Positions 41,588-64,000 of a stretch of 64,000 bases of DNA are shown in pieces. The position numbers were made by a program, and so were the translations under genes. The stretch lies in the NCBI GenBank assembly GCA_963664225.1, contig OY760937.1, positions 992,001-1,056,000 of the forward strand, written 5' to 3'. Within the stretch, counting starts at the first letter, position 1; every line of letters begins with the position of its first letter. Under the pieces are notes generated by a model. The model saw only the letters and a program-made list of their open reading frames with translations, had not been told where the DNA came from and searched no databases. This stretch comes from Verrucomicrobiia bacterium (lineage in GTDB: Bacteria > Verrucomicrobiota > Verrucomicrobiia > Limisphaerales > UBA1319).

Positions 41588-41676
41588 GTCCCGGAGACTA
41601 TTCCTCCGGCGCGCTTCGTCAATCGTGCATTGCGCCTGGACTTCGAGGGGTTGACAGGAGCATCCCGCGAAAAAGA

Positions 41677-41705: not shown

Positions 41706-41804
41706 GTCGTTTTTATTATTTATCGGACTGCTGGCAGCACTCGCGGGGAGGCTGCCAGCGCCTTGGAAAATCGATCATGAATTCATGATCGGAATCTATC
41801 TTGC

Positions 41805-45509: not shown

Positions 45510-45879
45510 GCGACTCCTAGGTTGATGTTTGCTGTTATTTCTGGGTTGTCACTGCCAAGACTAAGGCATGTGCCTTGATCGATCAAGTGTCTTTTTCGTC
45601 TGTTTTGCAATTTATTTGCCCTGCATTAACCTTGAAAACATATGCGTAACATATTAATATGTAGTATGTTATGGTCTTTCAAACAGGGTTGTTGCAATAT
45701 AGTGCTAATTTTTGCTGTTTTTATGCTAGTTTTCGTTGTCCAGGATGTTTTCCGGGTGGTCTGTGCTGGTTTGAACGGTGTTGGTTTTCCAAACGAGAAC
45801 GGGCTTGTGAGGGTTGCTTTGGCCTTGCGGCAGCGAATGACGGCCACTAGTTTACGACTGCATTGGTGAAAAATCGATC

Positions 45880-47238: not shown

Positions 47239-47258
47239 CCATTGTCCCATTGGGCTGA

Positions 47259-47798: not shown

Positions 47799-47841
47799 GC
47801 GTTGGGGCTCCCGGTTTCCAAAGCGGTTTTTCAACCGACTC

Positions 47842-48414: not shown

Positions 48415-48557
48415 GTTACAATCATGAAAAAAGGGCGCGGTATTTCACGGTATATGTATAAACAATTGAATGCCAAATAATTACGTCAACATTAATTGTC
48501 GCCGATCGTAGTGGTGGAACCTGAAAAACGGGGGGTATCAGCCCGGAAGCGTCTGTC

Positions 48558-50567
48558 TCAGGACTTTTTTTTGATAGGTGCCGCGCTCAGGTTGCCTGAT
48601 TGCGCGAGCCATTGGAGGGCGTGGTTTCGGAGGCTCTGACGTTCCTTATCGTTAAGGCCGGCAGGATCGAATCGATATCGGTAATGGAGTGCAAGGATGG
48701 ATTCCAAGCTTTCAGTGACGGGCCGTGCTGGCGATTGAATACGGGAGAGCCAGATTGCCGCGGTTTCGCCGGGATCGCGTGAGGCATGCAGTTGTGCCAA
48801 ACGGCGTTCGATCTCGTAGAATTCGGAGTCCTGACCCGGGAATTCCTTTTTCAATGCATTGGCCACGGGCAACATTTTGTTTTTTGCCCGGCGACTGGCA
48901 AAGGCAATCCGCCAGGCGAGCACTGAAGCCAGAACACAGGCCAGACCGATGGAATACTCGCGCAAATAGGATTTGGAATAGCGCCACTTGTCGAATTCGA
49001 ATTTCAGCCGCGACCAAAAATCGGACCATTTTTGATACCACGGCGCCCGGCCAGCCTCGATGGCGTTCCATCCGGACGGGGTGGTGTCAAAGTCCTCCCA
49101 CAACTGTGTATCCTCATTCCAGACCATGCACCATGCATGGGCATGGCGATTCCGTATGATGCGGTGCCGGGCATCGGGGGCCTCGATGACGGCAAACCCG
49201 GTGGCGTAGCGGGTTGGTATGCGGGCCTGGCGCAGCAATAGAACAGTGGCCGTGGCGAAGTATTCACAATGGCCTGAACGTGTTTGGAGGAGGAATCTGG
49301 ACAGGGGCGTGATCTCCTGTCGGCGAAATTTATAACCGGGATTCTCGAGAAACGTGGTGTATTTGAATGTGCTTTGAAGAAAATCCTCGATCACGCGCAT
49401 GCATTGGATGCGGTTTCCGGGCGTCAGATTTAAATTGCTGGCGACCTGGCTGATGGCCTGGAATTCGGTTTCTGGAATACGGAGGTCTTCGATGGCAGGC
49501 GGGCCGTCGATGGATTTGCCGGGGCCATAGAGAACGCCATATTGAACGAACGCAGGGGATTGGCCCGCCCGGACGTCTCCGAAGAGGTTGGTTTCCAATT
49601 CCTGCGAGGGCATGTTTTCAATGCGAGCGGCGCCCGGTGGCATTGGCAGCACGCTTTTGTTGCGTGAGATGTTGCCGCTGATGGTGATGTGCGCGGGCGC
49701 GTGTTTATCCGGGACCAGAGTCCAGGTGTCATTGGTTTCAGCAGTGACCGAAGAGAAGGCATTATTGAAAGCGTACCAGGTATTGGCGCGGAAGGAGTTA
49801 TAACTGGTCTCATGCAAAAGCGCTGGGGCTGTGTTGAGCCCGCCTGTATCGAGCCGGTAGAGGATGTGGCTCGAGAGTTGGAGACGGCCAATGCGTCCCA
49901 TGGAGGTCTGGCTTTCCCGCACGTCGATGTCGCGCCTGGCCCAGCGGAAAATCCAATTGCTGAGTTGGTATTCCATGAGGGCCTGAAGGTCGCGCAAGCG
50001 GCTCTGGGTTTGGTAACCGGCAACGGCAACGACAGCCAGAAGGGGGATCCAGATCCAGATTGGAGCACGCTGCGGCCGAGTGGCCAGCAGTGCCCATAGC
50101 ATGAGAGCCGAAAACCCAAAGTAGAACCAGGCGTTCTGCGGGCTGACGGCGCTTGCGGCCAGGATGCAATTCGCCCAATAAAGGTAGGATATATCCAGAC
50201 CCCTGTCGTTCGCGTCAGTTGGGCGTCGCCGCAAAATCCACGAGAAGACCCGGTAAGGGAGTTTTTCACGGTCTCCGAGCCATTGCGCGGTAATCATGGG
50301 CAGGAAGATCAACGGCAGCCATTGCATGAAGGCGAAGGCGGACGTGGTGATTTCCCGCGAGGCGTAGAAATATATGAACAAGGCCGCGAATACGACCATG
50401 CAAAAATCCCAGACGTGGTAGTAATCCTTTTCGCTCAATTCCCACTGGGTGTCGATGAATCGCACGCCCTCCAGGAACACCGCAGCCAGCAATCCCAGCA
50501 CATAATGGCCGGTGAGTGCGCCCCAAAAGAGCAGTGCGGCTCCTATCAGCAGAGGAGGGGTTTTCAT
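48558..50567 (-). CDS. Membrane protein with transglutaminase-like domain (TgpA-like)
   Basis: N-terminal TM helices, GHCEYFA, HAHAW, DTTP triad; ATGA overlap with the DUF58 gene. Confidence 0.9.
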   Translation of the reverse strand: MKTPPLLIGAALLFWGALTGHYVLGLLAAVFLEGVRFIDTQWELSEKDYYHVWDFCMVVFAALFIYFYASREITTSAFAFMQWLPLIFLPMITAQWLGDREKLPYRVFSWILRRRPTDANDRGLDISYLYWANCILAASAVSPQNAWFYFGFSALMLWALLATRPQRAPIWIWIPLLAVVAVAGYQTQSRLRDLQALMEYQLSNWIFRWARRDIDVRESQTSMGRIGRLQLSSHILYRLDTGGLNTAPALLHETSYNSFRANTWYAFNNAFSSVTAETNDTWTLVPDKHAPAHITISGNISRNKSVLPMPPGAARIENMPSQELETNLFGDVRAGQSPAFVQYGVLYGPGKSIDGPPAIEDLRIPETEFQAISQVASNLNLTPGNRIQCMRVIEDFLQSTFKYTTFLENPGYKFRRQEITPLSRFLLQTRSGHCEYFATATVLLLRQARIPTRYATGFAVIEAPDARHRIIRNRHAHAWCMVWNEDTQLWEDFDTTPSGWNAIEAGRAPWYQKWSDFWSRLKFEFDKWRYSKSYLREYSIGLACVLASVLAWRIAFASRRAKNKMLPVANALKKEFPGQDSEFYEIERRLAQLHASRDPGETAAIWLSRIQSPARPVTESLESILALHYRYRFDPAGLNDKERQSLRNHALQWLAQSGNLSAAPIKKKS

Positions 50568-52000
50568 AACGCGGCCAACCCCTGTTCGATCCGGGTCTTC
50601 TCCAGAACATGGAAGCACTCGGGACAGTCTTTTAGTGGTCCGGGTTCAAGCATTGCGCCGAGGCCATCCGCCACGACCACGAGAACCAGTAATGGAATGC
50701 CCATGGCGTGCAATTGCCGCACCAGATTCTGTCGGGCATCGTCCCACTGGATGAAAATGCAAATGCAGCCGCTGACCGCCCGGCTATGTTCCAGGACCAG
50801 TTGATGCAGGGCTTCAAACGGTTTTTCAGTGCATGGCGTGACCACAGCCAGAATTTCAAGCAGTTGGTCGATGTGCGCAACCCCCCGCCCGACGGTGAAG
50901 CAGTAGGCCTGCGGTCCGGCGAATAGCAGGTCCAGAAGCGAATCCTGTGTTTGAATGGTGCAGGCAAAAGAGGCGGCGACCGACACGGCTTCCTCGAAAA
51001 TCGCGCTATGCGCGTCACGACAGAAAGTGTCCAGGATCAGCGCGTGTCGCACGAAGAATTCATCCTGGAATTCTTTGACGATAGGCTTTCCGGATTTGGC
51101 CCAGCTTCTCCAGTGGATATGGCGCAAGGGATCGCCGGGACGGTAATCGCGCAGGGAGATGAATTCCTCGGATTCACCCACGGCGGCTGCCAACGCCACG
51201 CCGCCCGGTTGATAACGCATGGAGCCGGGCAGTGGCACTGCGGCGATTGGATAGCGTTTGGGCAGGATCAGCAATGACTGGGGCAGCGGACGTTCGGTCA
51301 GGCGTCGGAAGAGGCCGAAGATATCCGGACAGGCTATGGCCACACCCTGAAATTGCAGCATGCCCCGATGTTGCGGGATCAATTCGAGCATGGCCTCCGC
51401 ATGGCCGCGTCCAGGCACCGGCGGTAGCGGTTTCTCTGGAATATCAGCCTTTTGTTGGCAGGCAACCAGCCACTGCCATCGGTAATAGGCGTATTTGCGA
51501 TCGAACCAATTGCGGCGTTCCTCGCCCGGTTCAGGTGTGGTGATGAATTCGGCCAGGGTCGGACGTGGATCCCTCAGGCGTTCCAGGATGGCAAGATCGC
51601 GATAGGGGCGGCGTGAGTCGTTATGAACCACCACGCGATATTTCAATGGCGTGCCCACGGATGCGATGCGCGGCATGAACCGCTCCACACGCACCCGGGT
51701 GCGGATGAACAGGCAGGCCGTCAGCGCGGCGATGATCAGCCAGAGCAGGAAACTGAATGCTTGATAACCGACGGATAGATTGGTGTCCGCACGGGTGAGG
51801 GCAAACACAAAACCGATCAACACTAATATGCCGGTGCGCGTAATTCGCGGACGCAGCCAGTACTGCATGACCGATGCCAGGTGATAATTGTGATAAAGAT
51901 AGCGTTGAAACACGGTGTTCAGGTGGCAATGGTGGCGCTGTTTGAGCGCACAATCCACGATTGACGCCTTTGGACGACTCGCGCCGGGAACAATGGCCAC
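50564..52000 (-). CDS. DUF58 family protein
   Basis: EFISLRDYRPGDPLRHIHWRSWAK..KPIVKEF motif, in moxR operon context. Start uncertain. Confidence 0.9.
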   Translation of the reverse strand: MAIVPGASRPKASIVDCALKQRHHCHLNTVFQRYLYHNYHLASVMQYWLRPRITRTGILVLIGFVFALTRADTNLSVGYQAFSFLLWLIIAALTACLFIRTRVRVERFMPRIASVGTPLKYRVVVHNDSRRPYRDLAILERLRDPRPTLAEFITTPEPGEERRNWFDRKYAYYRWQWLVACQQKADIPEKPLPPVPGRGHAEAMLELIPQHRGMLQFQGVAIACPDIFGLFRRLTERPLPQSLLILPKRYPIAAVPLPGSMRYQPGGVALAAAVGESEEFISLRDYRPGDPLRHIHWRSWAKSGKPIVKEFQDEFFVRHALILDTFCRDAHSAIFEEAVSVAASFACTIQTQDSLLDLLFAGPQAYCFTVGRGVAHIDQLLEILAVVTPCTEKPFEALHQLVLEHSRAVSGCICIFIQWDDARQNLVRQLHAMGIPLLVLVVVADGLGAMLEPGPLKDCPECFHVLEKTRIEQGLAAL

Positions 52001-52016
52001 AAGCGCGGTTTCTTAC

Positions 52017-52967
52017 TCATGATGGCACGGGCAGTTTTTTCAACAATTCCTCCACAACGCCTCGGGCGGTGATTCCCGAGAAACGTGCCTGGGGCTCCAT
52101 CACCATACGGTGGGCCATGACCGGAACCGCGATCTCCTGGATCAGGTCCGGCGTTACAAAATCGACCCCGTCAAACAGGGCCAGTGCCTGGGCGGTTTTC
52201 ATCAGTGACAGGGAGGCGCGCGGGCTGGCTCCCAATTGCACGCCGGGAAACTTGCGGGTGGCGCCCGTCAAATCCACGATATACCGGCGCAGTTCTTCGC
52301 TGACCCGGATGCTTTTCACGGCCCGCTTCAGAGCCGAGACCTCGTCCGCAGTGGCGCATGGGGCGAGTGTCTCGATGGGTGGCTGATTTTCATGGGAATC
52401 AAGGATGCCCACCTCCTGTTCCGGTGAAACATAACCGAGGCTGAATTGCATGGCAAAACGGTCCATCTGGGCCTCGGGCAGGGGATAGGTGCCCCGAAAT
52501 TCGATCGGATTCTGCGTGGCGATGACCAGGAAGAGGGGTGGCAAGGGACGGCGCTCGCCATCCACGCTGACCTGGTTTTCGCCCATGGCCTCCAGCAATG
52601 CGGACTGGGTTCGTGGTGAGGCGCGATTGATTTCGTCGGCCAGCAGGATGTTGGTGAAGATGGGGCCTTCGTGAAAATAAAAAACCTGCTCTTTTTGATT
52701 GAACGTGGAAACGCCCAGGATATCCGAGGGCAGCAAATCGGGCGTGAACTGCAGGCGTTTGAAACCCGCATCGATGGATCGGGCAAGCGCCTTTGCCAGT
52801 GTTGTTTTGCCCGTTCCAGGAAAATCCTCCAGCAAAACGTGGCCATCACTGGCAAAGGCGGCCAGCAGACGGCGAATGGAGGCCGACTGGCCGCGCATGA
52901 CCCGTGCGATATTGGCGCTGATTCTCGTATGGATTTCCCGGGCGTGCGCAATATGTTCCTGCAGCAT
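52017..52967 (-). CDS. moxR: MoxR-family AAA+ ATPase
   Basis: HVLLEDFPGTGKT, FTPDLLPSD, LADEINRA, ATQNPIE, LPEAQMDRF. Likely start ATG 52967 (MLQEH). Confidence 0.95.
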   Translation of the reverse strand: MLQEHIAHAREIHTRISANIARVMRGQSASIRRLLAAFASDGHVLLEDFPGTGKTTLAKALARSIDAGFKRLQFTPDLLPSDILGVSTFNQKEQVFYFHEGPIFTNILLADEINRASPRTQSALLEAMGENQVSVDGERRPLPPLFLVIATQNPIEFRGTYPLPEAQMDRFAMQFSLGYVSPEQEVGILDSHENQPPIETLAPCATADEVSALKRAVKSIRVSEELRRYIVDLTGATRKFPGVQLGASPRASLSLMKTAQALALFDGVDFVTPDLIQEIAVPVMAHRMVMEPQARFSGITARGVVEELLKKLPVPS

Positions 52968-52982
52968 GTGTGCTGCCAATCT

Positions 52983-52993
52983 TGCCTGAATTG
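52983..52993 (+). repeat. Left attachment-site core
   Basis: TGCCTGAATTG at the GC-to-AT boundary; 10/11 identical to 59582-59592. Confidence 0.75.
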
Positions 52994-53181
52994 TCATTTT
53001 TATAAACACTTGTCATTACAATGGATACAAAATCCATGAAAGACTTCCCGACTCCGTTCATCCTTATGGTTCAAGTCAAAAGTGTCAACACTCCACACCA
53101 TCCAAAACTTGACCGTGTTTATGGGGTCAATATTCGTCTGGGGATACGAACACACAGACCACACACCAAAACGTCGCCACA

Positions 53182-53199
53182 GACCGTTTAAACGCAAAG
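53182..53199 (+). repeat. 18-bp direct repeat, copy 1 (GACCGTTTAAACGCAAAG)
   Basis: Identical copy at 56053-56070; contains the palindrome CGTTTAAACG. Confidence 0.85.
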
Positions 53200-53277
53200 A
53201 ATCCACACCATAGGATTTACATTGAACGTGTGTTTGGTATATCTCCTACAAAATCAGACAACATAAAAGGAAATCGT

Positions 53278-53679
53278 ATGAATGAAACATCACTCAAAAA
53301 CATTGAAGGATTGGAAGAAAAGATAAGAAAGGAATTGGAACCACTGAAGAAAGATTTGGAAAACATATTTAAAGACGGGGTGTCATTATACACCACGATA
53401 AAGAAATACGAACCCGATTTTGACATTAAGGGTTTATTGAAACGTTTTGACAAGAAAGCTGGAAGTGGAAACACCAAATCCGAAAAGATTACAGTGTCAA
53501 TCTCAAGGATACTTCCATCCAAAGGAATGAAGGAATCGGAAATCATATCTTCATTGAAACACTTAAAAGACAAAACTCCAGAAGATATATCCAAAGCATT
53601 GAACAAAGTGAAAACAAAAGCTGGTTCAAAGGATTCGTTTATTTATAAAGATGGGTTGTTCTTTTCCAAACCGAAGTGA
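53278..53679 (+). CDS. Small Lys-rich protein with N-terminal coiled coil and possible C-terminal winged helix
   Basis: AAAGGA RBS before ATG 53278; 133 aa. The fold is inferred only. Confidence 0.7.
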   Translation: MNETSLKNIEGLEEKIRKELEPLKKDLENIFKDGVSLYTTIKKYEPDFDIKGLLKRFDKKAGSGNTKSEKITVSISRILPSKGMKESEIISSLKHLKDKTPEDISKALNKVKTKAGSKDSFIYKDGLFFSKPK

Positions 53680-53859
53680 TATTATAAAATACAATACGTA
53701 TCCCCATATATACATTTTGTCCACATAATCCACCACTATATGGAAGGGATAAAGAAGTATAGGAATAGAATTACTATGTTTGGATAAAGATAATACCACG
53801 TTTAGACCACTTTATTGATATGTATAAAGTGTAAATGTAGTGATTTACAAAGTGCTCAA

Positions 53860-53895
53860 ACCCTTCATCAGATTATACTGATGAAGGGTCTTTTT
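53860..53895 (+). terminator. Intrinsic terminator
   Basis: Perfect 12-bp stem ACCCTTCATCAG / CTGATGAAGGGT followed by CTTTTT. Confidence 0.85.
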
Positions 53896-53984
53896 ATGTC
53901 ATAATAAGAACATAGAATAACCCCTTTAATTATATTTCGTTTAATTCAGTCGTTTATACTTCTACACGTATATGTATTGTGTAT

Positions 53985-54161
53985 ATGACAAATACAAATC
54001 ATAAACTAAAGTGGACACAAACCTATAGACGGAAACTTTCTGGAATGGGTTATAAGTGGTTGACGATTCAATTACCCCCTGAAGTCAGATTAAAGATAAT
54101 GGAATATAAAGACAATCTGATGTTAGAATATTTCCTCAAACACCCCGACAAGAAAATATAA
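53985..54161 (+). CDS. Small basic protein, possibly ribbon-helix-helix-like
   Basis: YRRKLSGMGYKWLTIQLPPEVRLKI pattern; ends 5 bp before the polymerase-like gene. Confidence 0.55.
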   Translation: MTNTNHKLKWTQTYRRKLSGMGYKWLTIQLPPEVRLKIMEYKDNLMLEYFLKHPDKKI

Positions 54162-54166
54162 TCACT

Positions 54167-55396
54167 ATGACAAATCACTACTTTTACTACAAAGAACAAA
54201 CCCCGTGTGGTTTAAATACCATTCTTATTTCAAATCCATTCCTCAAGGAAAACTTCAAATGTATTCCTTCGGTTATTAATCTACTTAGAATAATCGGATT
54301 TTGGAACAACATGGATAAAGATAAAGACAACTGGTCATCCATAACATCCAATTATTTTAAAAATCGGTTCGGTAATCTTTACACTCAAATCATTCATTCG
54401 TTGGTTGAATTGGAATTATTGAAAGTGTCTTATTATTGTAGAAAGAAACACACATACGGAAAAGACGATAATGGGGAATGTTTTTCCTATAAGATAACCG
54501 ATAAATGTTATTCGTTGTTATCTCAAAATGAAACTGAATACCTTTACAGATTATTTACAGACCCAAAGGAAATCAGAAAAAACCAAAAAAGAATTAGTCG
54601 AAGTGGATTTAATAAAGTCATCTATGACGACATAAGAAACGACATTAAACAAATGTTGGATGGTATTGATTTGGATTTTAACGAACTATTGGACACTCTG
54701 ACAACGTTGACAAATGGGAAAAGATTTACTGCGTTGTATTGTATTCGGAATATAAAAGAAAAACGATACACTGAATTAAAACACAACACTTCAGACAATC
54801 GAATTGCTACCCCATATACCGCACTTCCAAAGGAAATCAGACATCTTCTAACAGTCAATGGAAAGAAACCCGTCATCACTATAGACGTTCGGTCATGTCA
54901 TCCATCCTTATTCGCAAAGTATATCTCAGAACTATTCCCCACAGATGAAACCTTAAACGCTGAAGTGGAAAAGTGGAATGGTATATTCTTATCTCAAAAC
55001 GACCCAAAAACGTATTTATCAAATCTATTGAATATTCCCAGAACAGAAATCAAAGAAATAATGTTAGAATACTTCAATGGTCAATGGTTAAAGAATAAAC
55101 ACTTCAGAAAGTTTAATTATTGGTTATCTTCTAACTTTCCACAATTGTATAAAAGATGGAAGACAACGAATATAAAACAAACTGGGGTGAATCTATCAAA
55201 GAAATATGAAACCAAGATTATGTTGGACCCGTTGTTGTTCAAACAATGTAAAGTATTAGGATTTACAATAGGACAAGAATACGATGGGTTTACGTTGTTC
55301 GGTGATAACTCAAAGAATGTGGATGAAGTCATTTCATTTCTCAAACAAAGAACAAATGAACTATTAGATATGGATTTAATATATTCAGTGAATTAA
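54167..55396 (+). CDS. Minimal family-A-like (TV-Pol-like) nucleic acid polymerase with putative N-terminal wHTH
   Basis: NRIAT...LPKEIR, motif A-like TIDVRSCHP, motif B-like RTEIKEIMLEYFNG, motif C-like QEYDGF, in the expected order. Confidence 0.65.
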   Translation: MTNHYFYYKEQTPCGLNTILISNPFLKENFKCIPSVINLLRIIGFWNNMDKDKDNWSSITSNYFKNRFGNLYTQIIHSLVELELLKVSYYCRKKHTYGKDDNGECFSYKITDKCYSLLSQNETEYLYRLFTDPKEIRKNQKRISRSGFNKVIYDDIRNDIKQMLDGIDLDFNELLDTLTTLTNGKRFTALYCIRNIKEKRYTELKHNTSDNRIATPYTALPKEIRHLLTVNGKKPVITIDVRSCHPSLFAKYISELFPTDETLNAEVEKWNGIFLSQNDPKTYLSNLLNIPRTEIKEIMLEYFNGQWLKNKHFRKFNYWLSSNFPQLYKRWKTTNIKQTGVNLSKKYETKIMLDPLLFKQCKVLGFTIGQEYDGFTLFGDNSKNVDEVISFLKQRTNELLDMDLIYSVN

Positions 55397-55654
55397 AGTT
55401 TTCGGTATTCCTTCTTTTCTTCTATTCACTTATTTTATTTAAAAGGTTTCTTGTGTACACTAATAAATTAAAAAACAATAAAAAAGCATTTATATAACTT
55501 TGAATGTAATGAAAAGCAATACGAAGTATTAGTGAATATAGATATACTATCTTATAATAATTCCAAGTCAACATATAAATAATATAATCAGTTATTTTAA
55601 TTTACCCCGAATATATTTCATCGCTTGGATATTGGTATCGGTATTTATTCTATT

Positions 55655-55852
55655 ATGACAAAAGAACAAATCATAGAACGACTGATAGAACGGGCAAAAC
55701 ACGACAATATTGATACATCCTTAATGTTCTCCACGCTAAATAATGTTGTGTCATTAAGACAAATTATAAAAATGACAGACCAATACGAAGTCGTATTAGA
55801 TAACGGTCATTTAGGATATATCTGTGGGGATATGATAATGATAACAGATTAG
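55655..55852 (+). CDS. Small hypothetical protein
   Basis: 65-aa ORF in AT-rich DNA, co-oriented with its neighbours. Confidence 0.5.
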   Translation: MTKEQIIERLIERAKHDNIDTSLMFSTLNNVVSLRQIIKMTDQYEVVLDNGHLGYICGDMIMITD

Positions 55853-55876
55853 ATAAGACAAAGGATTATATAAAAT

Positions 55877-56011
55877 ATGAATGATACCACACAATCAGAT
55901 ACAATCAGTCAAACGATAACAGACACAATCCATTCATTTTATCAATCGCTCCAAAGGATTAGACAACACAGACGATTTATAGAAAGTCTTTACGACAACA
56001 CAGACCCTTAA
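55877..56011 (+). CDS. Very small hypothetical protein (44 aa)
   Basis: AAGGA upstream; reads MNDTTQSDTISQTITDTIHSFYQSLQRIRQHRRFIESLYDNTDP. Below the ORF-track cut-off. Confidence 0.35.
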   Translation: MNDTTQSDTISQTITDTIHSFYQSLQRIRQHRRFIESLYDNTDP

Positions 56012-56052
56012 AGACCCACAATGTATCCATTCAATCGTCATCATTCGCCTAC

Positions 56053-56070
56053 GACCGTTTAAACGCAAAG
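56053..56070 (+). repeat. 18-bp direct repeat, copy 2
   Basis: Identical to 53182-53199. Confidence 0.85.
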
Positions 56071-56606
56071 GGGATGTATTCTATTGTGTCTATATACCCC
56101 AACGCAGAAAGTATCCTTACGTATATACGTTGACCGCAGGGTTCCGTTATTCCGACCCGTAGATATTTGTAAGGTTTCCCGACACTTCACAAACATATAC
56201 GTTAGTATTCATCCAAATACTGACCGTTTTAGTGGATATTTGACCACGTATTCACGTCTTTTATAACAAATAGAACCCATTTAAACACGTTATCCACCCC
56301 ATACCCTTTGTTATTTGGTCATTTATTCTATTATTTGATTTTATATTCTGTGATGAAAATGGATAATATCACACACAATTTATAATTTATCACAGACTCC
56401 GCCGTTAAATGTAATTAGATAATATTTATAAAGTGTATATTACACATTCCCCCTTTCATACCGTTTGACCGGGGGATTTTTATTTTCGATATTCGTGTAG
56501 TATTTCCGTTGTATTGTCTAATGACTTCATATTTATACAATGATGATAATAACGTCATCATAAATCGGTACAACAAAATCCGATAGTAATAGAAAGAATA
56601 CATTTT

Positions 56607-57653
56607 ATGTCAATCTCCACAACGTTCAAAAGGGTCGGTTCAAGAATCAAAGAATCATTTATTTCAAAACCAAGACAGTGTGATGCTGTGGTTAAAGTAA
56701 ATAAAATGGTGGATAGAATAAATGAATTACAGTCAAGTGATTTACCAAAATCCACATTAGAAGGAACATTTCAGAAAAACATTACTTTAGTAAAACGTAA
56801 AATAGTTGAATTAGAAAATGACCCAAGTATAACGATGGATAATGTTATTGAAAAAACGTTAAATCGGTATGGATATAAAACCCCTAACGTCAATTCAAAC
56901 ATAACCGTTCAAGATGTTATTTCAAATGTTCAATCAAAGGAACAAGCTATGAATATAATTCAATCTCCACACAATATAATTTCCAATGAAGAAAAGACTG
57001 AAGCTATCAATGTTATAAATAATTCAGACCTTCCCGATAAAGTGTCAATTCAGAAGGAACAAACAAAGAAAACATTCATCTTTAAAACCTCCCCGTATTC
57101 TAATAAAGAAAACGCATTATACGATTTAAGAAAACAACTGTTCACTCAAACAATTACATGGGATGAATTTGAACAAGGGAAAACTCAGATTGATAACAGT
57201 AATCTTCCAAGTCGTAATTCAATCGCAACTGATATGGTGGAAGTGAAACAAGACGACACACCAAAGTTTAGTTCGGTTCAACCCCATTACTTCGTCAAAT
57301 ACGGTTATTATTTATTATATGATGGTGGGGTATGTTATTTACAGACCGATTTAAATTATAACATCCCAGTTGAATTGATTAAATTGACCGAATCTTTACC
57401 TTCGCCGTGTTCAATATCAATGATTAACGACACACAAGGAACAAGTCGGACAAATCAAAACTGCTTCTCAAAATACAGACACATGACACAAACGGAATAC
57501 AACGATTTGGTTAAACAAAATCTTCCAATTGATGATATTCTAAAAGTGTATCAAAGACGACAAAGCCCGACAACGGGTTTTGGTGGTGGATTAGGTGATA
57601 ACAGACTTAAAAAGGTATTGTTAAATATTACGAATTCAATCCCAGTATTTTAA
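56607..57653 (+). CDS. Hypothetical protein (348 aa), element cargo
   Basis: Long ORF in AT-rich DNA where chance ORFs are short; no motif recognised. Confidence 0.75.
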   Translation: MSISTTFKRVGSRIKESFISKPRQCDAVVKVNKMVDRINELQSSDLPKSTLEGTFQKNITLVKRKIVELENDPSITMDNVIEKTLNRYGYKTPNVNSNITVQDVISNVQSKEQAMNIIQSPHNIISNEEKTEAINVINNSDLPDKVSIQKEQTKKTFIFKTSPYSNKENALYDLRKQLFTQTITWDEFEQGKTQIDNSNLPSRNSIATDMVEVKQDDTPKFSSVQPHYFVKYGYYLLYDGGVCYLQTDLNYNIPVELIKLTESLPSPCSISMINDTQGTSRTNQNCFSKYRHMTQTEYNDLVKQNLPIDDILKVYQRRQSPTTGFGGGLGDNRLKKVLLNITNSIPVF

Positions 57654-57657
57654 TCTT

Positions 57658-57858
57658 ATGGATATTATAACTGATAGACGATTACGAAGTTTCTTAAATG
57701 GTATGGGTATATCCCGTTCTCAGATGTTAAGAAAGGGTATATCTTTTGACACTGTGATTATATTATATAATCAAATGAATCAATATCCAACGAATTCAGT
57801 TGAATATTACAATATGGAACGACACATTAGAAATTATTGTAATACTGGATTGACTTAA
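57658..57858 (+). CDS. Small hypothetical protein
   Basis: 66-aa ORF starting 4 bp after the previous stop. Confidence 0.55.
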   Translation: MDIITDRRLRSFLNGMGISRSQMLRKGISFDTVIILYNQMNQYPTNSVEYYNMERHIRNYCNTGLT

Positions 57859-57902
57859 AACAATTTCCTCAAATAGGTCACGACCAAACTGTTTTTGGTA
57901 TG

Positions 57903-57931
57903 TTGACATCACATTTAAAGATGTGAATAAT
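57903..57931 (+). promoter_or_regulatory. Sigma70-type promoter with palindromic spacer
   Basis: TTGACA-17 bp-AATAAT; the spacer region is TCACAT-TTAAAG-ATGTGA. Confidence 0.6.
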
Positions 57932-57935
57932 TCAT

Positions 57936-58015
57936 ACCGTAGGTTCTTCGACGTTATCTCCTACGGTTATATAAAGAAAAGGACCGTGGGTCTTGTTCCC
58001 TACGGTCTTTTTTTT
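57936..58015 (+). ncRNA. Candidate ~80-nt two-hairpin sRNA ending in an intrinsic terminator, which is probably shared with the convergent recombinase gene
   Basis: ACCGTAGG/CCTACGGT stem, then GGACCGTGGG/CCTACGGTCT stem and a T run; no ORF. Confidence 0.45.
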
Positions 58016-58048
58016 GTTGGATTGGATTGGATGGATTAGAACACCAAT

Positions 58049-59545
58049 TTAGTCTCCAACATAGATTTTATTAGATGTTTTCCCATTTGTCAGTTCAACC
58101 CAATATTCGTTTGAATTGAAATCGCAGACAATTCGTTTGATTAAAAAGTTAATTGGTTCCAATAGTTGTTTCCTCACGTCATCATTCTTTAGTTTGGTCT
58201 CCATGTCAGACAGACAGTCAGTCAACGCTCCATCGTCATCACCCTTTAGAACGGTCTGTAGAATGTTTAAACCGTGCTTTAATTGGTTTGGTGAATGTAT
58301 GGAAGATTGTTTAATCAATAGTTCATCGTCAATTTCCTTCATTCGTTTCTGTGCCTTGGTCAATTTGGTTCTCAATACATCCATTCCGATATCCTGAAGT
58401 GATAATAACTTTTCAACCTCCATGTGAAGGGTAAAGTGTTCGGCCTGTAAGTGTCTAACAGATTCAACCAATGATTTATCCATGTCAGAAATCAAATCGT
58501 CTGTGGTGGATTCAAGAACCATTGATAACAATGTCTCCTCAAACAACTTCGCCCGAAAGTGGGTTACTTGGTCACAACTCCCTTGGTGTTTCCCTTTACA
58601 ATAGAAATACCGTGTGAAAATCTTATTCGATGTCGTTACGACTGATTTACCACAATGGGAACAAAATAATTTACCACGTAGAAAGTTTGTCAGTAGTGGT
58701 CTTTTACCTTGTTTGGGGGCATTTTTAATTAGAAGAAATTGAACACGGTTGAATTGAACGTCTGAAATAATCCTTGGGAAATACCCTTTCACCCCTTTAA
58801 ACTCGCCCATCGTCTGTCTGGCCGTAAGAAGATTCTTAACATACGCTGGGGCCCAAAACTTCGCACGGGCAAATGTCTTATAACCCTTTAGATTTAGTTG
58901 TTGTGTCGTCTGATAAATCGATTTCAGTTTTTCGTATTCGTCAAAAACATATTTAACTGTCTTGGAATTATCGTTCAAAACATAACGTTCGTTTTCCTTA
59001 TCCCAATCAAAATAGTGTGGGCAACAATCATACATCCAAACTTGTTTTCCACTCAACGCACTTTCACGTTTCCTTTTCTTCGCTGACGCAACCCTTGAAC
59101 CAAGTGTTTTTGAATATTGATTCGCTCCAACAAACGCCATTAACATTTTCAAGATTGTGGTTATGGGGTCTGATTTGACCTTTTCAGTGGTATAAAAGTC
59201 ATTCTCAAGAAACGAATAAACTTGAACCCCTTTTTTTAATAATGACAAGAAAATGGGTAAAACATCATCCACGTCATTACGACTGAATCGGTCTAATTTT
59301 TCCACAATCAAAACACAAGGGGTTTGAATGAAACCCATATCCACCTTTTTTATAAACCCACCAAGGATTGACGAATGGTTTAGGTTTTTTCCGTGATACG
59401 CAGAAACACCACGTTCGGGGGGTAAATCGATAAGATTCCATCCCCTATCCCTACAGATGGTTCTCGCCAGTTCCGTTTGACGTAAAAAGGAATCACCATC
59501 CGTTTGTTTTTTCGAACTCCAACGAACATAAGAATAAGCATTCAT
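58049..59545 (-). CDS. Large serine recombinase (integrase)
   Basis: YSYVRWSSKKQ (catalytic Ser), VEKLDRFSR, recombinase domain, zinc ribbon CSHCG...YFYC...C, coiled coil. Confidence 0.93.
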   Translation of the reverse strand: MNAYSYVRWSSKKQTDGDSFLRQTELARTICRDRGWNLIDLPPERGVSAYHGKNLNHSSILGGFIKKVDMGFIQTPCVLIVEKLDRFSRNDVDDVLPIFLSLLKKGVQVYSFLENDFYTTEKVKSDPITTILKMLMAFVGANQYSKTLGSRVASAKKRKRESALSGKQVWMYDCCPHYFDWDKENERYVLNDNSKTVKYVFDEYEKLKSIYQTTQQLNLKGYKTFARAKFWAPAYVKNLLTARQTMGEFKGVKGYFPRIISDVQFNRVQFLLIKNAPKQGKRPLLTNFLRGKLFCSHCGKSVVTTSNKIFTRYFYCKGKHQGSCDQVTHFRAKLFEETLLSMVLESTTDDLISDMDKSLVESVRHLQAEHFTLHMEVEKLLSLQDIGMDVLRTKLTKAQKRMKEIDDELLIKQSSIHSPNQLKHGLNILQTVLKGDDDGALTDCLSDMETKLKNDDVRKQLLEPINFLIKRIVCDFNSNEYWVELTNGKTSNKIYVGD

Positions 59546-59581
59546 AAGTCGTTATCTTACAGTGTAGGATGAAAAATACAA

Positions 59582-59592
59582 TGCCTGATTTG
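59582..59592 (+). repeat. Right attachment-site core
   Basis: TGCCTGATTTG, 36 bp upstream of the recombinase ATG, at the AT-to-GC boundary. Confidence 0.75.
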
Positions 59593-59657
59593 ATTTACGG
59601 CTCAACAGTTAAAATTAGCTCGCCCGGAACCATGGTTCCTCTTTAGGCTGGTCTTGC

Positions 59658-60539
59658 ATGAAATCAATGACGGGTTACGGGCGTGGTGAAAATGCCCAGG
59701 CAGGCTTCAAAGTCACGGTCGAGTTGAGTTCCATCAACCGCAAACAGTCGGAAATCTCCGTGTTCATGCCTCGTGAAATCGAGGCGCTCGAACCCCGGAT
59801 TCGTGACGCCATCAACCATGGCGTCGCCCGCGGACGTGTCACGTCCCGCGTTTCCCTGCACGCCGCTGAAAATGACGCCACTCCATCGGTCCGATTGAAT
59901 GGCGCGCTGGCCCGGGCGTACGCCCATGAATTGAAACGGCTGGCCGACGAGTTGGGCATGCCGGGTAGTGTCAGCCTGGATTTGATTGTCCGTTCACCGG
60001 GCGTCATCGTCACCGATCAGGAAGCGCTCGATCCCGAGACCTTCTGGCCCGCCACCGAAAAGGCCCTCCGTCAGGCCTTGACGGCTCTGGTTGGAATGCG
60101 CAAGCGGGAAGGCGAGCATCTGGAGAAGGACCTGACCGCGCGCATTTCCACGATGGCCAAAGCGGTGGCGCGTGTGGCCAAACGGGCGCCCCTGGCCGTT
60201 AAGAACTGTGAAAAGCATCTGGCAGCCCGGTTAAAAAAAGCCGGTTTGGAGAACTCGGATATTCCGGAGCAACGCTGGCTCCAGGAGATTCTCTTGTTTG
60301 CGGACAAGATGGATATCACCGAGGAGTTGACCCGTCTGCAAAGCCATTTTCAGCAATACGAGGATTGCCGTAAATCCACCGCGCCGGTTGGGCGCACCCT
60401 GGACTTTCTGGCCCAGGAAATGAACCGCGAGATTAATACCATTGGCTCGAAAGCCAACGACAGCGTAATTTCGAAGGAAGTCGTTCTTTTGAAAACCGAA
60501 CTGGAAAAATTCCGCGAGCAGGTTCAGAACGTGGAATAA
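59658..60539 (+). CDS. yicC: YicC/YloC family endoribonuclease
   Basis: MKSMTGYGR, DITEELTRLQSH, GRTLDFLAQEMNREINTIGSK, REQVQNVE. Confidence 0.95.
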   Translation: MKSMTGYGRGENAQAGFKVTVELSSINRKQSEISVFMPREIEALEPRIRDAINHGVARGRVTSRVSLHAAENDATPSVRLNGALARAYAHELKRLADELGMPGSVSLDLIVRSPGVIVTDQEALDPETFWPATEKALRQALTALVGMRKREGEHLEKDLTARISTMAKAVARVAKRAPLAVKNCEKHLAARLKKAGLENSDIPEQRWLQEILLFADKMDITEELTRLQSHFQQYEDCRKSTAPVGRTLDFLAQEMNREINTIGSKANDSVISKEVVLLKTELEKFREQVQNVE

Positions 60540-60591
60540 TCGTCATTTTACAGTTCTACACGGAATCAAAACGCTTAATTTCAAGAGCACA

Positions 60592-61221
60592 ATGCCCGCT
60601 AAAATTTCCAACTCCATATTATTGGTGATTTCGGCGCCTTCGGGTGGCGGAAAAACCACTGTTTGCCAGGAACTGCTGGCGTCCAATCCCAATCTGCATC
60701 GGGTGGTTACTTGCACCACACGCGCTCCGCGCCCGGGTGAGAAGGACGGTGTGGATTACCAGTTTCTAACGGCGGAAGATTTCTTGAAACGCGTTCAAGC
60801 CGGAGAATTTCTCGAGTATGCCACCGTTTATGGAAACAGCTATGGCACATTAAAATCGGACGTGCTTGCCAAATTGCGACAGGGCAGGGATTTGCTGTTG
60901 GCTATTGATGTTCAGGGGGTCGCCGCCATTCGGGCAAAAGCCGCGGAGGTGCCGGAATTGCAGCGTTCCCTGGTGACGGTGTTTCTGACGCCGCCCAGTC
61001 TTGATATCCTGGCGAAACGTTTGAGCCAAAGAGCCACCGATTCTGAAGCGGTCCAGCGCAAGCGATTGAGTGTGGCCAGACAGGAAATCAGCCAGTGGGT
61101 GCATTATGAATATCTGGTTTTGAGCGGCTCAATCGCCGAGGACCTGCGCCGTATGCAGATCATCATCGAGGCTGAAAAGATGCGCCAGTTTCGTTCGGTC
61201 GCCCCCATTACGGAATTCTAG
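60592..61221 (+). CDS. gmk: Guanylate kinase
   Basis: SAPSGGGKTT, TTRAPRPGEKDGVDYQF, EFLEYA.VYGNSYGT. Confidence 0.96.
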   Translation: MPAKISNSILLVISAPSGGGKTTVCQELLASNPNLHRVVTCTTRAPRPGEKDGVDYQFLTAEDFLKRVQAGEFLEYATVYGNSYGTLKSDVLAKLRQGRDLLLAIDVQGVAAIRAKAAEVPELQRSLVTVFLTPPSLDILAKRLSQRATDSEAVQRKRLSVARQEISQWVHYEYLVLSGSIAEDLRRMQIIIEAEKMRQFRSVAPITEF

Positions 61222-61375
61222 GCGGGAACTCCATTCCCAGGCTCCGTAATCTTCCGGCACGTAATTGAGACACGATTTTGCATTGAGAAATGCAAAAAGT
61301 TCGCTACTATAGATAGCTGTAGGCGCAGTAAAAACAGGAGTTTTCTAATTAAACGTTTTTGCCGCCTATTCAATT

Positions 61376-61648
61376 ATGGCAAAGCAAATTAAGAAGAAGG
61401 TCGAATTCACTCTGGACGCTCCCGAAGCCAAAACCGTTGTTCTGGCGGGCGATTTTACCGGATGGCAGCAAAAGCCTCTGGCTTTTTCGCGCCAAAAAAC
61501 CGGTATTTGGAAAGTCGCGGTCACGCTCCCGGCCGGGGCTTATCAATACCGTTTTCTGGTCGATGGCCAGTGGCAGGATGATCCAGCCTGCAAAACGCAT
61601 TGCCTCAATGAGTTCGGAGGCCAGAATTGCGTTTGCAAAGTGGCCTGA
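61376..61648 (+). CDS. Stand-alone glycogen-binding (CBM48/AMPK-type) domain protein
   Basis: APEAKTVVLAGDFTGW, GAYQYRFLVDGQWQDDP, NEFGGQN. Confidence 0.88.
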   Translation: MAKQIKKKVEFTLDAPEAKTVVLAGDFTGWQQKPLAFSRQKTGIWKVAVTLPAGAYQYRFLVDGQWQDDPACKTHCLNEFGGQNCVCKVA

Positions 61649-61678
61649 ACCCGCTGCGAAGGCCGGAGTATCGGCCGT

Positions 61679-62947
61679 TCATTTTACGATGCGATAGAGC
61701 GCGGTCTTGGTTCTTAAAACCAGGGAATTGCCATCGACAGCGGGCGACGCCATAAAGCCGTCCTCCAAGCTGCTCTCGGCCAATATTTTAAAAGGCGGCT
61801 GGTCTGCCAGAACAGTGGCTTTGCCTTCCTCGCTGAAACAATAGATGCGACCGTCGGCATGCAGTGGGGATGCGGTAAAATGGCCGCCCAATTTCTGGCG
61901 CCCGGCGATTCCACCGTTTTCGGCGCGGATAAAGGTCGCGGTTCCGTTGTCATCGACCATGAAGAGATAGTCTCCGACCAGCAGGATAGATGGTTTCAGG
62001 GAGACGTCCTTTTTAATCCGCCACAGGATGTGACTCTCGTTGACGATGCCGCTACCGCCTGGTTTGACCGCCAAAAGCTGGCCCGAGGAAAATCCTGCAC
62101 AATAATAAATGCGGTCTTTCCCAATCACCGGTCTCGCGCTGCCAGAGAAGCATTGGCGTTCTTCCAAACGCCACAATTCCTTGCCGTCATTCGGTTGATA
62201 GGCATAGAGCGCCTTGGATCCCAGGCTCAGGAGGATGGGCGGTTGACCATCAAAAGCGGCAATCAGGGGGGTTGAAAAGGCTTTCCGAAAATCCCCGCTG
62301 TCCTTTGGTTTACCTTCGGCATTGAGGTCCTGCCAATCGATGGAACGATCCACTTTCCAGAGGGTTTTCCCGGTCTTTTTATCCAGCGCAACCACGTATT
62401 GGAAATCGCTGCCATCGAAATGCATGATCAACTTGTCCTCGAAAACAATGGGTGAGGAGCCGGCGCTGCGGTAATGGTTGCATTCCAAATCACGGCGCTC
62501 CCATAGCACCGCCCCGGTTTTCGTATCCAGACAGGCGGTTCCGGGCGCGCCAAAAGTGACATACACCCGTCCCTCTTCAATCACCGGGGAGGGGGAGGCA
62601 TAAGTGTTAAAAGGAATGCAATATTGGGGCTTGGCGACATCGAAAATCTTTAAATCACGTATGACGGCCCCGGTTTCACTATCCACGCAAACGGCGAATA
62701 ATTCTTTGCCATCCTCAGGGGCTGTTGTGAACCAGATCTGGCGGTCCCAGATTACCGGTGAAGACCAGGCGCGACCATGAATGGGGGTTTTCCATTGCAC
62801 ATTATTCGTTTCCGACCAGGACAACGGCAGGCTTTTGGCGTCTGAATTACCCTGTCCATCCGGGCCGCGAAATTGAGGCCAGCGATCTGCTCCCGACGCG
62901 GCCGATGAACATAATGCGGCCAGAAATATCCACGGTTTCCAATTCAT
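61679..62947 (-). CDS. PQQ-like beta-propeller repeat protein, secreted
   Basis: WPQFRGP, WSSPVI, repeated LDxxTG..LW units, ASPAV near the C-terminus. Confidence 0.88.
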   Translation of the reverse strand: MNWKPWIFLAALCSSAASGADRWPQFRGPDGQGNSDAKSLPLSWSETNNVQWKTPIHGRAWSSPVIWDRQIWFTTAPEDGKELFAVCVDSETGAVIRDLKIFDVAKPQYCIPFNTYASPSPVIEEGRVYVTFGAPGTACLDTKTGAVLWERRDLECNHYRSAGSSPIVFEDKLIMHFDGSDFQYVVALDKKTGKTLWKVDRSIDWQDLNAEGKPKDSGDFRKAFSTPLIAAFDGQPPILLSLGSKALYAYQPNDGKELWRLEERQCFSGSARPVIGKDRIYYCAGFSSGQLLAVKPGGSGIVNESHILWRIKKDVSLKPSILLVGDYLFMVDDNGTATFIRAENGGIAGRQKLGGHFTASPLHADGRIYCFSEEGKATVLADQPPFKILAESSLEDGFMASPAVDGNSLVLRTKTALYRIVK

Positions 62948-63157
62948 AATGTCCGGCAGCCTAACTAGCGCGTCTTTGTGAGGCCAGCCAGAAAAGATGA
63001 TGAAAACCAGTTAAATCGCCAGGCTGGTGAAAACGTCGCCTCCCGGAGAACGGCCCGAAGATTGATTTACTTTCTGTCCCCTCACATGTCAGTATGGCGC
63101 GAAGCTAATTTGTGCATAAACGGCCAGTCGAAAACCATGCCGATTTAGGATTTTGGT

Positions 63158-64000
63158 ATGAAATTAATCAAGAAACTGTCTCCAGCCAGCTTTTGTGGAA
63201 AAATCAGTGTGGTCCTCTGTCTGCTGGGCTTTGGCGGGCTGCCGTTTGTTAACGGACTTTTTGGCGGTGAATTGTCCGGCCGCAACGAAGCCGAGGTTGC
63301 GATTTCGAAGCTGCCAACCTTGCACAAGTCTTCCAAATTGCCCACAAAAGACTGGCTCATTGATGGAAATTCCTACAAGGCCCGTGTGTATCGCGGGGAG
63401 TATCCCAATGAAATCGTTCTGGCCAATGGTCTGGTGGCCCGCACATTTCGCCTCACTCCGAACGCGGCCACGGTGGGCCTCGATAATCTGGTGACTGGCG
63501 AAACCATCCTGCGCGGTGTGAAGCCGGAGGCTGTTGTCGAATTGGACGGCAAGCGCTACGAAGTCGGTGGATTGAAAGGCCAGCCCAACTATGCTTTTCT
63601 GCGGCCGGAGTGGTTGGAGAGAATGAGCGACGATCCTGCGGCGTTTCGATTCGTCGGTTTTGAAGTGGGCCAGCCGAAAGAGCGACTCGCCTGGAAGCAA
63701 GTGCGACATCACGCGCCCAATGTGCAATGGCCGCCTGCGGGTGTTTCTCTAAGGCTTGATTTTGCACAGCCTGAAGGGACTTATGCTCCGCCCAACTCCG
63801 CCATTCGCGTTTCCGTTCACTATGAGCTCTACGACGGCATTCCCTGCTACAGCAAGTGGATCACGATTCGCAACGACTCCGGGCGTTCGATTCGTGTGGA
63901 CCGTTTTTCCAGCGAGGTGCTTGCGGTGGTGGAACGAACTGCCGAAGTGGATGAACTCACCAATGGCCTTAATCCTCCCAATCTCCATATTGAGACCGAT
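63158..64000 (+). CDS. Secreted glycoside hydrolase, alpha-galactosidase-like N-terminal region; runs off the right edge
   Basis: Open frame from ATG 63158 reading DWLID...LANGLVARTF...RGVKPEA...VGGLKGQPNYAFL...VHYELYDGIPCYSKW. The catalytic domain is not in the window. Confidence 0.6.
   Translation, partial: MKLIKKLSPASFCGKISVVLCLLGFGGLPFVNGLFGGELSGRNEAEVAISKLPTLHKSSKLPTKDWLIDGNSYKARVYRGEYPNEIVLANGLVARTFRLTPNAATVGLDNLVTGETILRGVKPEAVVELDGKRYEVGGLKGQPNYAFLRPEWLERMSDDPAAFRFVGFEVGQPKERLAWKQVRHHAPNVQWPPAGVSLRLDFAQPEGTYAPPNSAIRVSVHYELYDGIPCYSKWITIRNDSGRSIRVDRFSSEVLAVVERTAEVDELTNGLNPPNLHIETD

Follow-up and report, generated by a model that had tools for sequence, protein, structure and literature searches.

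A compact integrative element of a Verrucomicrobiia bacterium that combines a large serine recombinase with a predicted minimal family-A polymerase of the TV-Pol type

In a 64,000-nucleotide stretch from the genome of a Verrucomicrobiia bacterium (GenBank assembly GCA_963664225.1, contig OY760937.1, positions 992,001 to 1,056,000 of the forward strand; hereinafter, the window), we identified a compact integrative element of about 6.6 kb that was apparently inserted by its own large serine recombinase and that encodes, next to this recombinase, a 409-amino acid protein confidently modeled as a winged-helix domain joined to a minimal family-A polymerase core, without exonuclease domains. We interpret this protein as an enzyme of the TV-Pol type, that is, one of the polymerases characterized by a reduced thumb, an arginine in a hairpin, two aspartates in the palm, and fingers with an aspartate and an RxxxK motif (Iyer, Abhiman and Aravind 2008, PMC2579912). 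The working model that we favor, and consider on balance probable, is that the element is excised by the recombinase and then primed and replicated with the participation of its own polymerase. The features that are central to this interpretation are the following (positions are those of the window).

52983-52993: left copy of a direct repeat, TGCCTGAATTG, probable attL crossover region in the spacer between moxR and yicC; it coincides with the break in G+C content and with the CCTGAA of the empty site in a same-genus genome, G001
54167-55396, plus strand: 409-amino acid polymerase-like protein, with a predicted winged helix at residues ~5-125 and a predicted minimal family-A core at residues ~130-409
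58049-59545, minus strand: large serine recombinase, 498 amino acids, the start codon of which lies 37 nt inside the right-hand repeat
59582-59592: right copy of the direct repeat, TGCCTGATTTG, probable attR crossover region

The element is foreign DNA, a mobile element inserted between two housekeeping genes. The G+C content of the island (52995-59582) is 33.9%, compared to 56.2% in the left flank (40000-52983) and 53.8% in the right flank (59594-64000), and the sliding G+C profile shows a sharp break in composition at the island edges. The island is located inside the spacer of two divergent genes, moxR (AAA_3 domain, 3.4e-62) and yicC, which in G001 are only about 150 bp apart on a single contig, so that the island is absent there. 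When both junctions are aligned to the G001 spacer, the flanks of the window rejoin G001 at an imperfect 11-bp direct repeat, with the two copies 6,599 bp apart and positions 52983 and 59592 as the outer ends; at this site, G001 contains CCTGAA followed by GGCTCAA..TTAAAATT, which matches the right flank of the window. Because the identity with G001 in moxR is no higher than about 73%, the junctions are precise to roughly ten bases. By itself, the 11-bp direct repeat is not significant, with 32 of 500 shuffles scoring equally, and the same holds for the terminal inverted repeats of the element (41 of 500); no tRNA gene was found near the island. The G001 alignment also indicates that the true start of moxR is the ATG at 52967, hence the spacer is the insertion site, and moxR gains an in-frame extension upstream; the longest moxR open reading frame (ORF), which starts with the GTG at 53009, includes such an extension into the island (52968-53009). 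In the 5.78-Mb, one-contig genome of the host, the polymerase gene is present in a single copy.

The ORF list of the island includes eight intact ORFs, seven on the plus strand and one, convergent to these, on the minus strand. The convergent ORF, of 498 amino acids, is, by its profile matches, a large serine recombinase with all three domains, namely, Resolvase (Pfam, 2.1e-13, residues 3-161), Recombinase (6.7e-10, 192-270) and Zn_ribbon_recom (1.2e-7, 289-343). In PHROGs, it matches the integrase family phrog_95 (2.2e-58), residues 184-423 match the C-terminal domains of the A118 serine integrase with an E-value of 3e-5, and NCBIfam yields sub-threshold matches to CcrB, XisF and CcrC. The original prediction, which was made from the nucleotide sequence, described this region as an AT-rich 6.6-kb mobile insert with seven co-oriented ORFs and a convergent integrase, and as a pairing of a large serine recombinase with a polymerase; the ORF list, the G+C content, the Pfam and PHROGs matches and the empty site in G001 all agree with that description, and the end coordinates given in it turn out to be the exact outer bases of the imperfect direct repeat.

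At the sequence level, the 409-amino acid protein showed no significant match in Pfam, NCBIfam, PHROGs or PADLOC; the Pfam scan of all 52 aligned members of its family was equally negative, as were searches of PDB sequences, whether the query was the single protein or the family profile, and a tblastn search of 50,697 phage and 72,556 plasmid records. When 1.84 billion cluster representatives were searched exhaustively with phmmer, by contrast, 175 proteins were retrieved with E-values at or below 1e-3, 136 of these at or below 1e-10 and 38 at or below 1e-30, and a word-indexed search detected, besides the protein itself, four relatives with 59%, 43%, 41% and 31% identity, the two closest of which (59% and 43%) are encoded on contigs of 6,923 bp and 6,720 bp, respectively. 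Given that this subfamily, which comprises at least 175 clusters at 50% identity, has no Pfam, NCBIfam or PHROG model, it is currently unannotated.

We analyzed an alignment of 52 sequences that consists of the query, the four relatives from the word-indexed search and 47 of the 150 listed phmmer hits, picked for a single match over most of the query, with fragments and split matches left out. Five residues, R212, D240, K296, E348 and D373, are invariant in all 52 sequences, and four more are nearly so, namely, R242 (49 sequences), C244 (47), N304 (51) and G305 (49). The invariant arginine, R212, is found within a D/T-G/N-R signature, 28 residues before D240, with DSSP beta bridges at about 206 and 213; positions 372-374 read [YH]-D-[GE], similar to the HDE of Pol I, with Y and H in 20 sequences each, G in 42 and E in 9; and the putative fingers region of the 409-amino acid protein contains D279 and R292-x-x-x-K296, with D in 33 and H in 13 sequences at position 279. 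The segments that the original prediction quoted as resembling motifs A, B and C are all present in the translation (DVRSCHP, 240-246; RTEIK...YFNG, 292-305; EYDG, 371-374), and each of the two aspartates, the conservation of which in homologs was named beforehand as a check, is retained in 52 of the 52 sequences.

The predicted structure points to family A. The AlphaFold2 model obtained from the 52-sequence alignment has a predicted local distance difference test (pLDDT) score of 93.8 and a predicted template modeling score of 0.89, and among the listed matches from the Foldseek comparison with PDB, which gave 21 matches with E-values at or below 1e-3, all are family-A DNA polymerases (Taq, Klenow, the apicoplast polymerase, Bst, Aquifex, M. 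smegmatis Pol1 and DpoZ). In a wide structural search of 48,161 chains that was independent of Foldseek, the best match was Klenow (Z 11.9, root mean square deviation of 3.2 A, 241 residues aligned), followed by Aquifex Pol I and the apicoplast polymerase (both 11.7), Pol theta (11.3), T7 DNA polymerase (10.9), Pol nu (10.8), a Taq variant (9.3) and M. smegmatis Pol1 (9.2), so that the top eight are all family-A DNA polymerases, with 241-247 residues aligned within residues 146-409 of the model. Both the right-hand polymerase fold, which was another check named beforehand, and the assignment to a minimal family-A-like polymerase in the original prediction are thus borne out by the structural matches, together with the invariant residues. 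Among the BFVD models of viral proteins, the best matches are phage proteins of about 400 amino acids, one of which is annotated as "putative DNA polymerase I" (E-value 1.6e-12, template modeling score 0.55), and the Zamilon virophage replication protein is matched as well (1.1e-4); we take the latter to be of the Sputnik V13 type, for which TV-Pol was first described.

In the model, D240 ends the strand 233-241, which is followed by a helix, and D373 is located at the turn of the hairpin 367-379. Motifs A and C of Pol I have the same topology, with the aspartate at the end of a strand and at the turn of a hairpin, respectively. From the invariance of these residues and their secondary-structure context in the model, D240 would correspond to motif A, D373 to motif C, K296 to the motif B lysine and R212 to the hairpin arginine; a local hhalign alignment, which is not significant, places D373 on the aspartate of the Pol I HDE. 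Residues 5-125 of the model resemble winged-helix proteins, such as TubR (Z 8.1), a MarR-type protein (7.8) and MotA (7.7), and winged-helix proteins account for many of the remaining rows of the wide structural search; Z scores near 8 are middling, and the helix-helix-helix-hairpin secondary structure of this N-terminal part agrees with a winged helix.

The polymerase fold is common to family-A DNA polymerases and the T7-like RNA polymerases, and below the top eight, the wide search includes the yeast mitochondrial RNA polymerase (Z 8.9, 252 residues), DpoZ (8.6), N4 RNAPII (7.8) and T7 RNA polymerase (6.9). The 409-amino acid protein could, therefore, be a minimal single-subunit DNA-dependent RNA polymerase that transcribes the genes of the element, with the winged helix serving as the promoter-recognition module, an alternative that was raised already in the original prediction. 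Compatible with this possibility, two distant relatives from the same phylum (L059 and L061) carry HDS, which is the motif C of T7 RNA polymerase, and the position five residues after D240 is occupied by His or Tyr in the 52-sequence alignment, not by Glu, the steric-gate residue at this position of Pol I. However, the bulk of a His or Tyr side chain in place of the steric-gate residue would itself tend to exclude the 2'-OH group, and the family-A DNA polymerases score higher (Z 9.2-11.9), filling the top eight and all listed Foldseek rows. Furthermore, CCPol, the only TV-Pol tested, strongly prefers deoxynucleoside triphosphates (dNTPs) (PMC7581432). Judging from these comparisons of the model, an RNA polymerase is less likely than a DNA polymerase, and we consider it quite improbable.

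The relatives of the 409-amino acid protein are recurrently encoded near recombinases. No relatives were found when genome contigs were scanned with the single protein; pattern scans built on a 10-row alignment recovered two genome loci, one in a Verrucomicrobiota metagenome-assembled genome (MAG) and the other in an Akkermansia MAG, along with 27 metagenome loci, and a pattern scan of IMG/VR gave no relative. The neighbors were scanned in 16 of these 29 loci, with 11 too-short contigs and two near-duplicates, L015 (of L014) and L018 (of L019), left out. Of these 16 loci, 10 also encode a site-specific recombinase: six have a serine-type recombinase (L011, L014, L016, L019, L026 and L038), three a tyrosine-type recombinase with a score exceeding the Pfam cut-off (L024, L028 and L029), and one, L035, a sub-threshold tyrosine-type match; the scan of L010, L013, L025, L031, L033 and L036 detected no recombinase. 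No helicase or primase family was detected in the 16 loci, and a single L035 protein contains helicase-associated (HA) domains. Thus, the search for related elements that the original prediction suggested reveals a recurrent linkage with recombinases.

The closest parallel is L014, which has the same layout as the element, with a small ORF, the polymerase gene, several unknown genes and a convergent large serine recombinase, in this case of 610 amino acids and 25% identical to that of the island; the small ORF, a 64-amino acid homolog of the 60-amino acid ORF that precedes the polymerase gene in the island (E-value 2.3e-4), stops 4 nt upstream of the polymerase gene. The 8,282-bp contig of L038 has a 127-bp terminal overlap, which is not seen in any other locus and suggests a circular molecule of about 8.2 kb, so that this locus may represent the extrachromosomal form of a related element. 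L038:1-8282 encodes a 25%-identical polymerase homolog, a protein with a resolvase domain and a weak match to tyrosine recombinases.

Among 301 genomes of the host phylum, nine, including the source genome, match the family profile with E-values at or below 1e-3; only the source genome has a strong match, and the other eight are weak and partial (2.8e-9 to 6.7e-4). The distant relatives in the phylum contain RDE[AI]K...NG and HD[GS] motifs. In L059, L061, L063 and L064 (genomes G156, G276, G317 and G127, respectively), ORFs of 394-530 amino acids with weak profile matches (9e-9 to 4e-4) and no Pfam match carry the signatures D-x-x-x-[AC]-x-P, RDE[AI]K or R-x-K-I-K, and HD[SG], and by these motifs are probably further unannotated TV-Pol-like lineages. 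A more distant branch of the family has another conserved protein, ~100 amino acids long and with the motif KKIRIRK...LQP.T..AL..LL.AAR..K, encoded upstream of the polymerase gene (L011:7034-7489, L024:4060-4380, L027:104-403 and L034:6-224); it may be the stand-alone N-terminal-domain protein described in PMC2579912.

These findings closely parallel the original description of the TV-Pols, members of which were reported in Verrucomicrobia, Planctomycetes and Bacteroidetes; a subset of these, with an extra N-terminal domain, is associated, within small mobile elements, with gamma-delta resolvases, lambda-type integrases or transposases, and the resolvase-linked forms were proposed to be primase-polymerases of replicative elements (PMC2579912). 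The features in common are a protein of 400-600 residues with a minimal family-A core devoid of nuclease domains and an extra N-terminal domain, an invariant arginine upstream of the palm, two invariant aspartates, a lysine-bearing helix in the putative fingers, and a serine recombinase adjoining the polymerase in a small mobile element of distinct composition; the taxonomic affinity is shared as well, considering the Verrucomicrobiota and Akkermansia MAGs among the relatives found. It is because the minimal family-A core, the N-terminal domain, the invariant aspartates and arginine and the recombinase linkage fit that description that we classify the enzyme as TV-Pol-type. There are also differences, in that the N-terminal domain of TV-Pols was predicted to be all-helical (PMC2579912), whereas that of the 409-amino acid protein is modeled as a winged helix, the reported elements carry a small gamma-delta-type resolvase rather than a large serine integrase, and the flanking repeats of the Brucella element are about 200 nt long compared to 11 bp here.

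The remaining features of the island are listed below.

53182-53199, plus strand: first copy of an 18-nt box, GACCGTTTAAACGCAAAG, near the left end, part of a 26-nt box with 88% identity
53230-53679, plus strand: lysine-rich ORF, 149 amino acids (133 from the ATG at 53278), without family match
53860-53889, plus strand: terminator-like hairpin after the first ORF, with a 12-bp stem followed by a T-run
53979-54161, plus strand: small ORF, 60 amino acids (58 from the ATG at 53985), without family match; it ends 5 nt before the polymerase gene
55397-55624: very AT-rich spacer (22.4% G+C) immediately after the polymerase gene
55625-55852, plus strand: ORF, 75 amino acids, without family match
55877-56011, plus strand: ORF, 44 amino acids, a doubtful gene without family match
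56012-56606: non-coding stretch of 595 bp, with the second 18-nt box and a C5/G5 hairpin with a T-run
56053-56070: second exact copy of the 18-nt box, inside the 595-bp non-coding stretch
56607-57653, plus strand: orphan ORF, 348 amino acids, Asn-, Ser- and Gln-rich, in which [SN][DN]LP motifs recur
57658-57858, plus strand: ORF, 66 amino acids, without family match
57937-58016: pair of hairpins in the gap that separates the convergent genes, with a T8 run after the second; read by eye and absent from the consensus terminator scan

The comparison of the eight ORFs with Pfam, PHROGs, NCBIfam and PADLOC gave no exonuclease, helicase, relaxase, capsid or conjugation match, in accord with the original prediction, which had recognized no such gene; these are absences of a match and not proof that a function is missing. 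The 60-amino acid ORF occupies the same position in the closest relatives (blastp to L014:2657-2851 and to L015, E-value 2.3e-4) and shares with its counterparts an LPPE/D motif, so it might be a regulator or partner of the polymerase. For the 149-amino acid ORF, an Atlas feature search gave hypothetical proteins (0.90) and a cluster of Rok-like winged-helix proteins (0.88), a weak lead only. The 348-amino acid ORF matched only itself among 5.8 billion clusters and has a weak relative downstream of the L013 polymerase gene (E-value of 8e-7 in a small database); there was no usable Atlas hit, and the structural model, with a pLDDT of 37, is uninformative. The 66-amino acid ORF is one candidate for a recombination directionality factor.

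As for the non-coding parts, the AT-rich spacer 55397-55624 is a candidate replication origin or unwinding region, by analogy to the staphylococcal cassette SCCmec, in which the origin is located downstream of the CCPol operon (PMC7581432). The 595-bp stretch 56012-56606 folds better than shuffled sequences (RNA fold z -2.61, with none of 100 shuffles folding equally well) and could be a regulatory region, an origin region or a small RNA; the Rfam scan of the island, this stretch included, gave no match. Its C5/G5 hairpin followed by a T-run, on the plus strand at about 56449-56486, may mark the end of a small transcript. The 18-nt box is present in two exact copies in the window, none of 100 shuffles giving three matches at up to three mismatches, and the two copies are candidate protein-binding sites. 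The hairpins at 57937-58016 are probably a bidirectional terminator; promoter-like and terminator-like sites in the region are not more common than in shuffles, and the element contains no meaningful tandem repeats or iterons.

An element in which most ORFs are orphans, with a 348-amino acid ORF that matches only itself, could be a decaying remnant with a polymerase-like gene that is no longer functional, and the contigs of public sequencing runs contain no excision product. Yet none of the eight ORFs is disrupted, the polymerase has all of the residues found to be invariant across its family, and the recombinase has retained all three domains. Five public runs from two studies, none of them on record as RNA, carry the stretch or part of it, and in two of the four runs compared, a single contig each (31,463 and 55,980 nt) covers all 7,401 bases in the integrated form with 0 differences; this identity of contigs from the runs of two studies also argues against decay, which we regard as very improbable, and the two full-length contigs may be the source data of the window. 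In two further runs, X4 and X5, about half of the sampled words of window positions 52600-60000 are found, on contigs of 200-1,100 nt, many of which pass, at scattered internal points, into dissimilar sequence that is G+C-rich, a pattern that could reflect fragmented assembly or variant contexts.

The host genome adds a further aspect. The PF00476 profile detects no Pol I polymerase domain in the 5.78-Mb genome, and the best protein match to the Pol I domain of a relative has an E-value of only 0.46, so that the island enzyme is the sole family-A polymerase fold detected there; the host has a stand-alone 5'-3' exonuclease ORF of 347 amino acids. The host locus cited with the observation on Pol I is G000:C1:64294-64788. 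Among 13 close genomes, the host included, only 2 have a PF00476 match, and among 41 high-quality genomes from the phylum, 18 do. One could, accordingly, imagine that the polymerase serves a purpose other than replication of the element, be it gap filling or repair at integration or excision, DNA synthesis in an anti-phage or addiction system, or a benefit to a host that lacks the Pol I polymerase yet possesses the stand-alone exonuclease. The absence of a helicase match and of a recognized origin in the element would fit such a role, and several related loci carry restriction-modification or HNH genes. Serine recombinases, however, leave no gaps to be filled, there is no match to a PADLOC defense model, the family is sporadic, with a strong match in one of the 301 genomes of the phylum, and many relatives without Pol I also lack this polymerase-like gene. 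The recombinase as the constant companion of the polymerase is more readily explained by maintenance of the element, and we judge a non-replicative role to be improbable.

The model that we favor, in which the polymerase replicates the element, would then involve three steps. First, the recombinase would excise the element as a circle. Second, the winged helix would bring the polymerase to an origin of the element, with the AT-rich spacer (55397-55624) and both copies of the 18-nt box as candidates. Third, the polymerase core would make a primer de novo and extend it, presumably with dNTPs. The replication proteins of the host would take over from there, because the element encodes no recognizable helicase. 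Under this model, the element would be self-priming and capable of autonomous replication, either as a replicative element in its own right or as a satellite.

Several observations weigh against this interpretation. The correspondence of residues to the Pol I motifs, including that of K296 to the motif B lysine, is putative, and the local hhalign alignment, which is not significant, places the RTEIK helix on the Pol I helix that follows the O-helix. The arginine of RxxxK, which belongs to the definition of the TV-Pols, is variable in the subfamily of the 409-amino acid protein (R in 8 and K in 15 of the 52 sequences at position 292). The sequence-profile link of TV-Pols to Pol I is not reproduced for this family: hhalign against 16 Pol I domains of the host phylum is not significant, with a probability of 1.8% and an E-value of 0.027, and the addition of six distant relatives to the profile raised the probability to only 3.2% (E-value range 0.014-0.027). 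Neither does the family profile, in a search without a positive control, match the record of the phage Ma-LMM01, which was named as a TV-Pol carrier (PMC2579912). In the element itself, no helicase, no partner similar to an SSB (a protein that binds single-stranded DNA) and no recognizable origin was identified, and among the contigs of the four runs, which cannot show rare forms, there is no circle junction, joint or empty site.

Comparison with better-characterized systems helps to place the element. CCPol of SCCmec is, according to the authors of PMC7581432, the sole biochemically characterized TV-Pol, and our literature searches on TV-Pol and on A-family polymerase, primase and serine recombinase found no later biochemical study of another one among the papers listed. 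CCPol elongates primers with dNTPs, its synthesis of DNA primers requires binding to the OB-fold protein MP, and a helicase gene adjoins (PMC7581432 and PMC10061031). Like the pair of CCPol and MP and the PolA-SSB primases of Bacillota, the 409-amino acid protein combines an A-family polymerase domain with residence in an element that is moved by large serine recombinases; unlike in these systems, there is no helicase match in the eight ORFs of the island, and no OB-fold partner was identified, with the small neighboring ORFs showing no family match in the four libraries.

The pipolins are similar in that their piPolB is a self-priming DNA polymerase of a small integrative element (PMC10061031). 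The VEIMEs (virion-encapsidated integrative mobile elements), which are marine phage satellites, are small integrative elements without capsid genes as well, and in their module 3, 91% carry a serine recombinase and the association is with Verrucomicrobia and Cyanobacteria (PMC9618062). The VEIMEs are, however, defined by packaging into virions, whereas the island is compared with them by gene content alone, and in its accessible part, the description of the VEIMEs mentions no TV-Pol-like gene (PMC9618062). With regard to the pipolins, the similarity does not extend to the enzyme, given that the two proteins have different fold families. The fold of piPolB is that of a family-B polymerase.

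Conceivably, the 409-amino acid protein is a complete, one-chain replication starter: the winged helix would recognize the 18-nt boxes or the AT-rich spacer, the minimal core would synthesize DNA primers de novo with neither an SSB partner nor a helicase encoded by the element, and the enzyme would then replicate a large part of the 6.6-kb circle, perhaps in the form of concatemers packaged by a helper phage as in VEIME satellites, all in a host without a Pol I polymerase; this elaborate version of the model is doubtful as a whole. In the more restrained version, the element is probably a further, very compact example of the TV-Pol-type integrative elements that have already been predicted and are little studied, the recombinase-linked TV-Pols having remained a prediction only since 2008. 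The element, at 6.6 kb, appears to be an unusually clean, small test case: its junctions are defined, a relative has the empty site, and it carries a single recombinase, a single polymerase fused to a DNA-binding domain, a pair of candidate boxes and no recognized helicase. Residence in a host without another detected family-A polymerase removes the background activity. If the proposed mechanism is correct, a Pol A core of about 280 residues that primes alone would define the minimal requirements for a primase of this fold and would explain the self-maintenance of many small islands.

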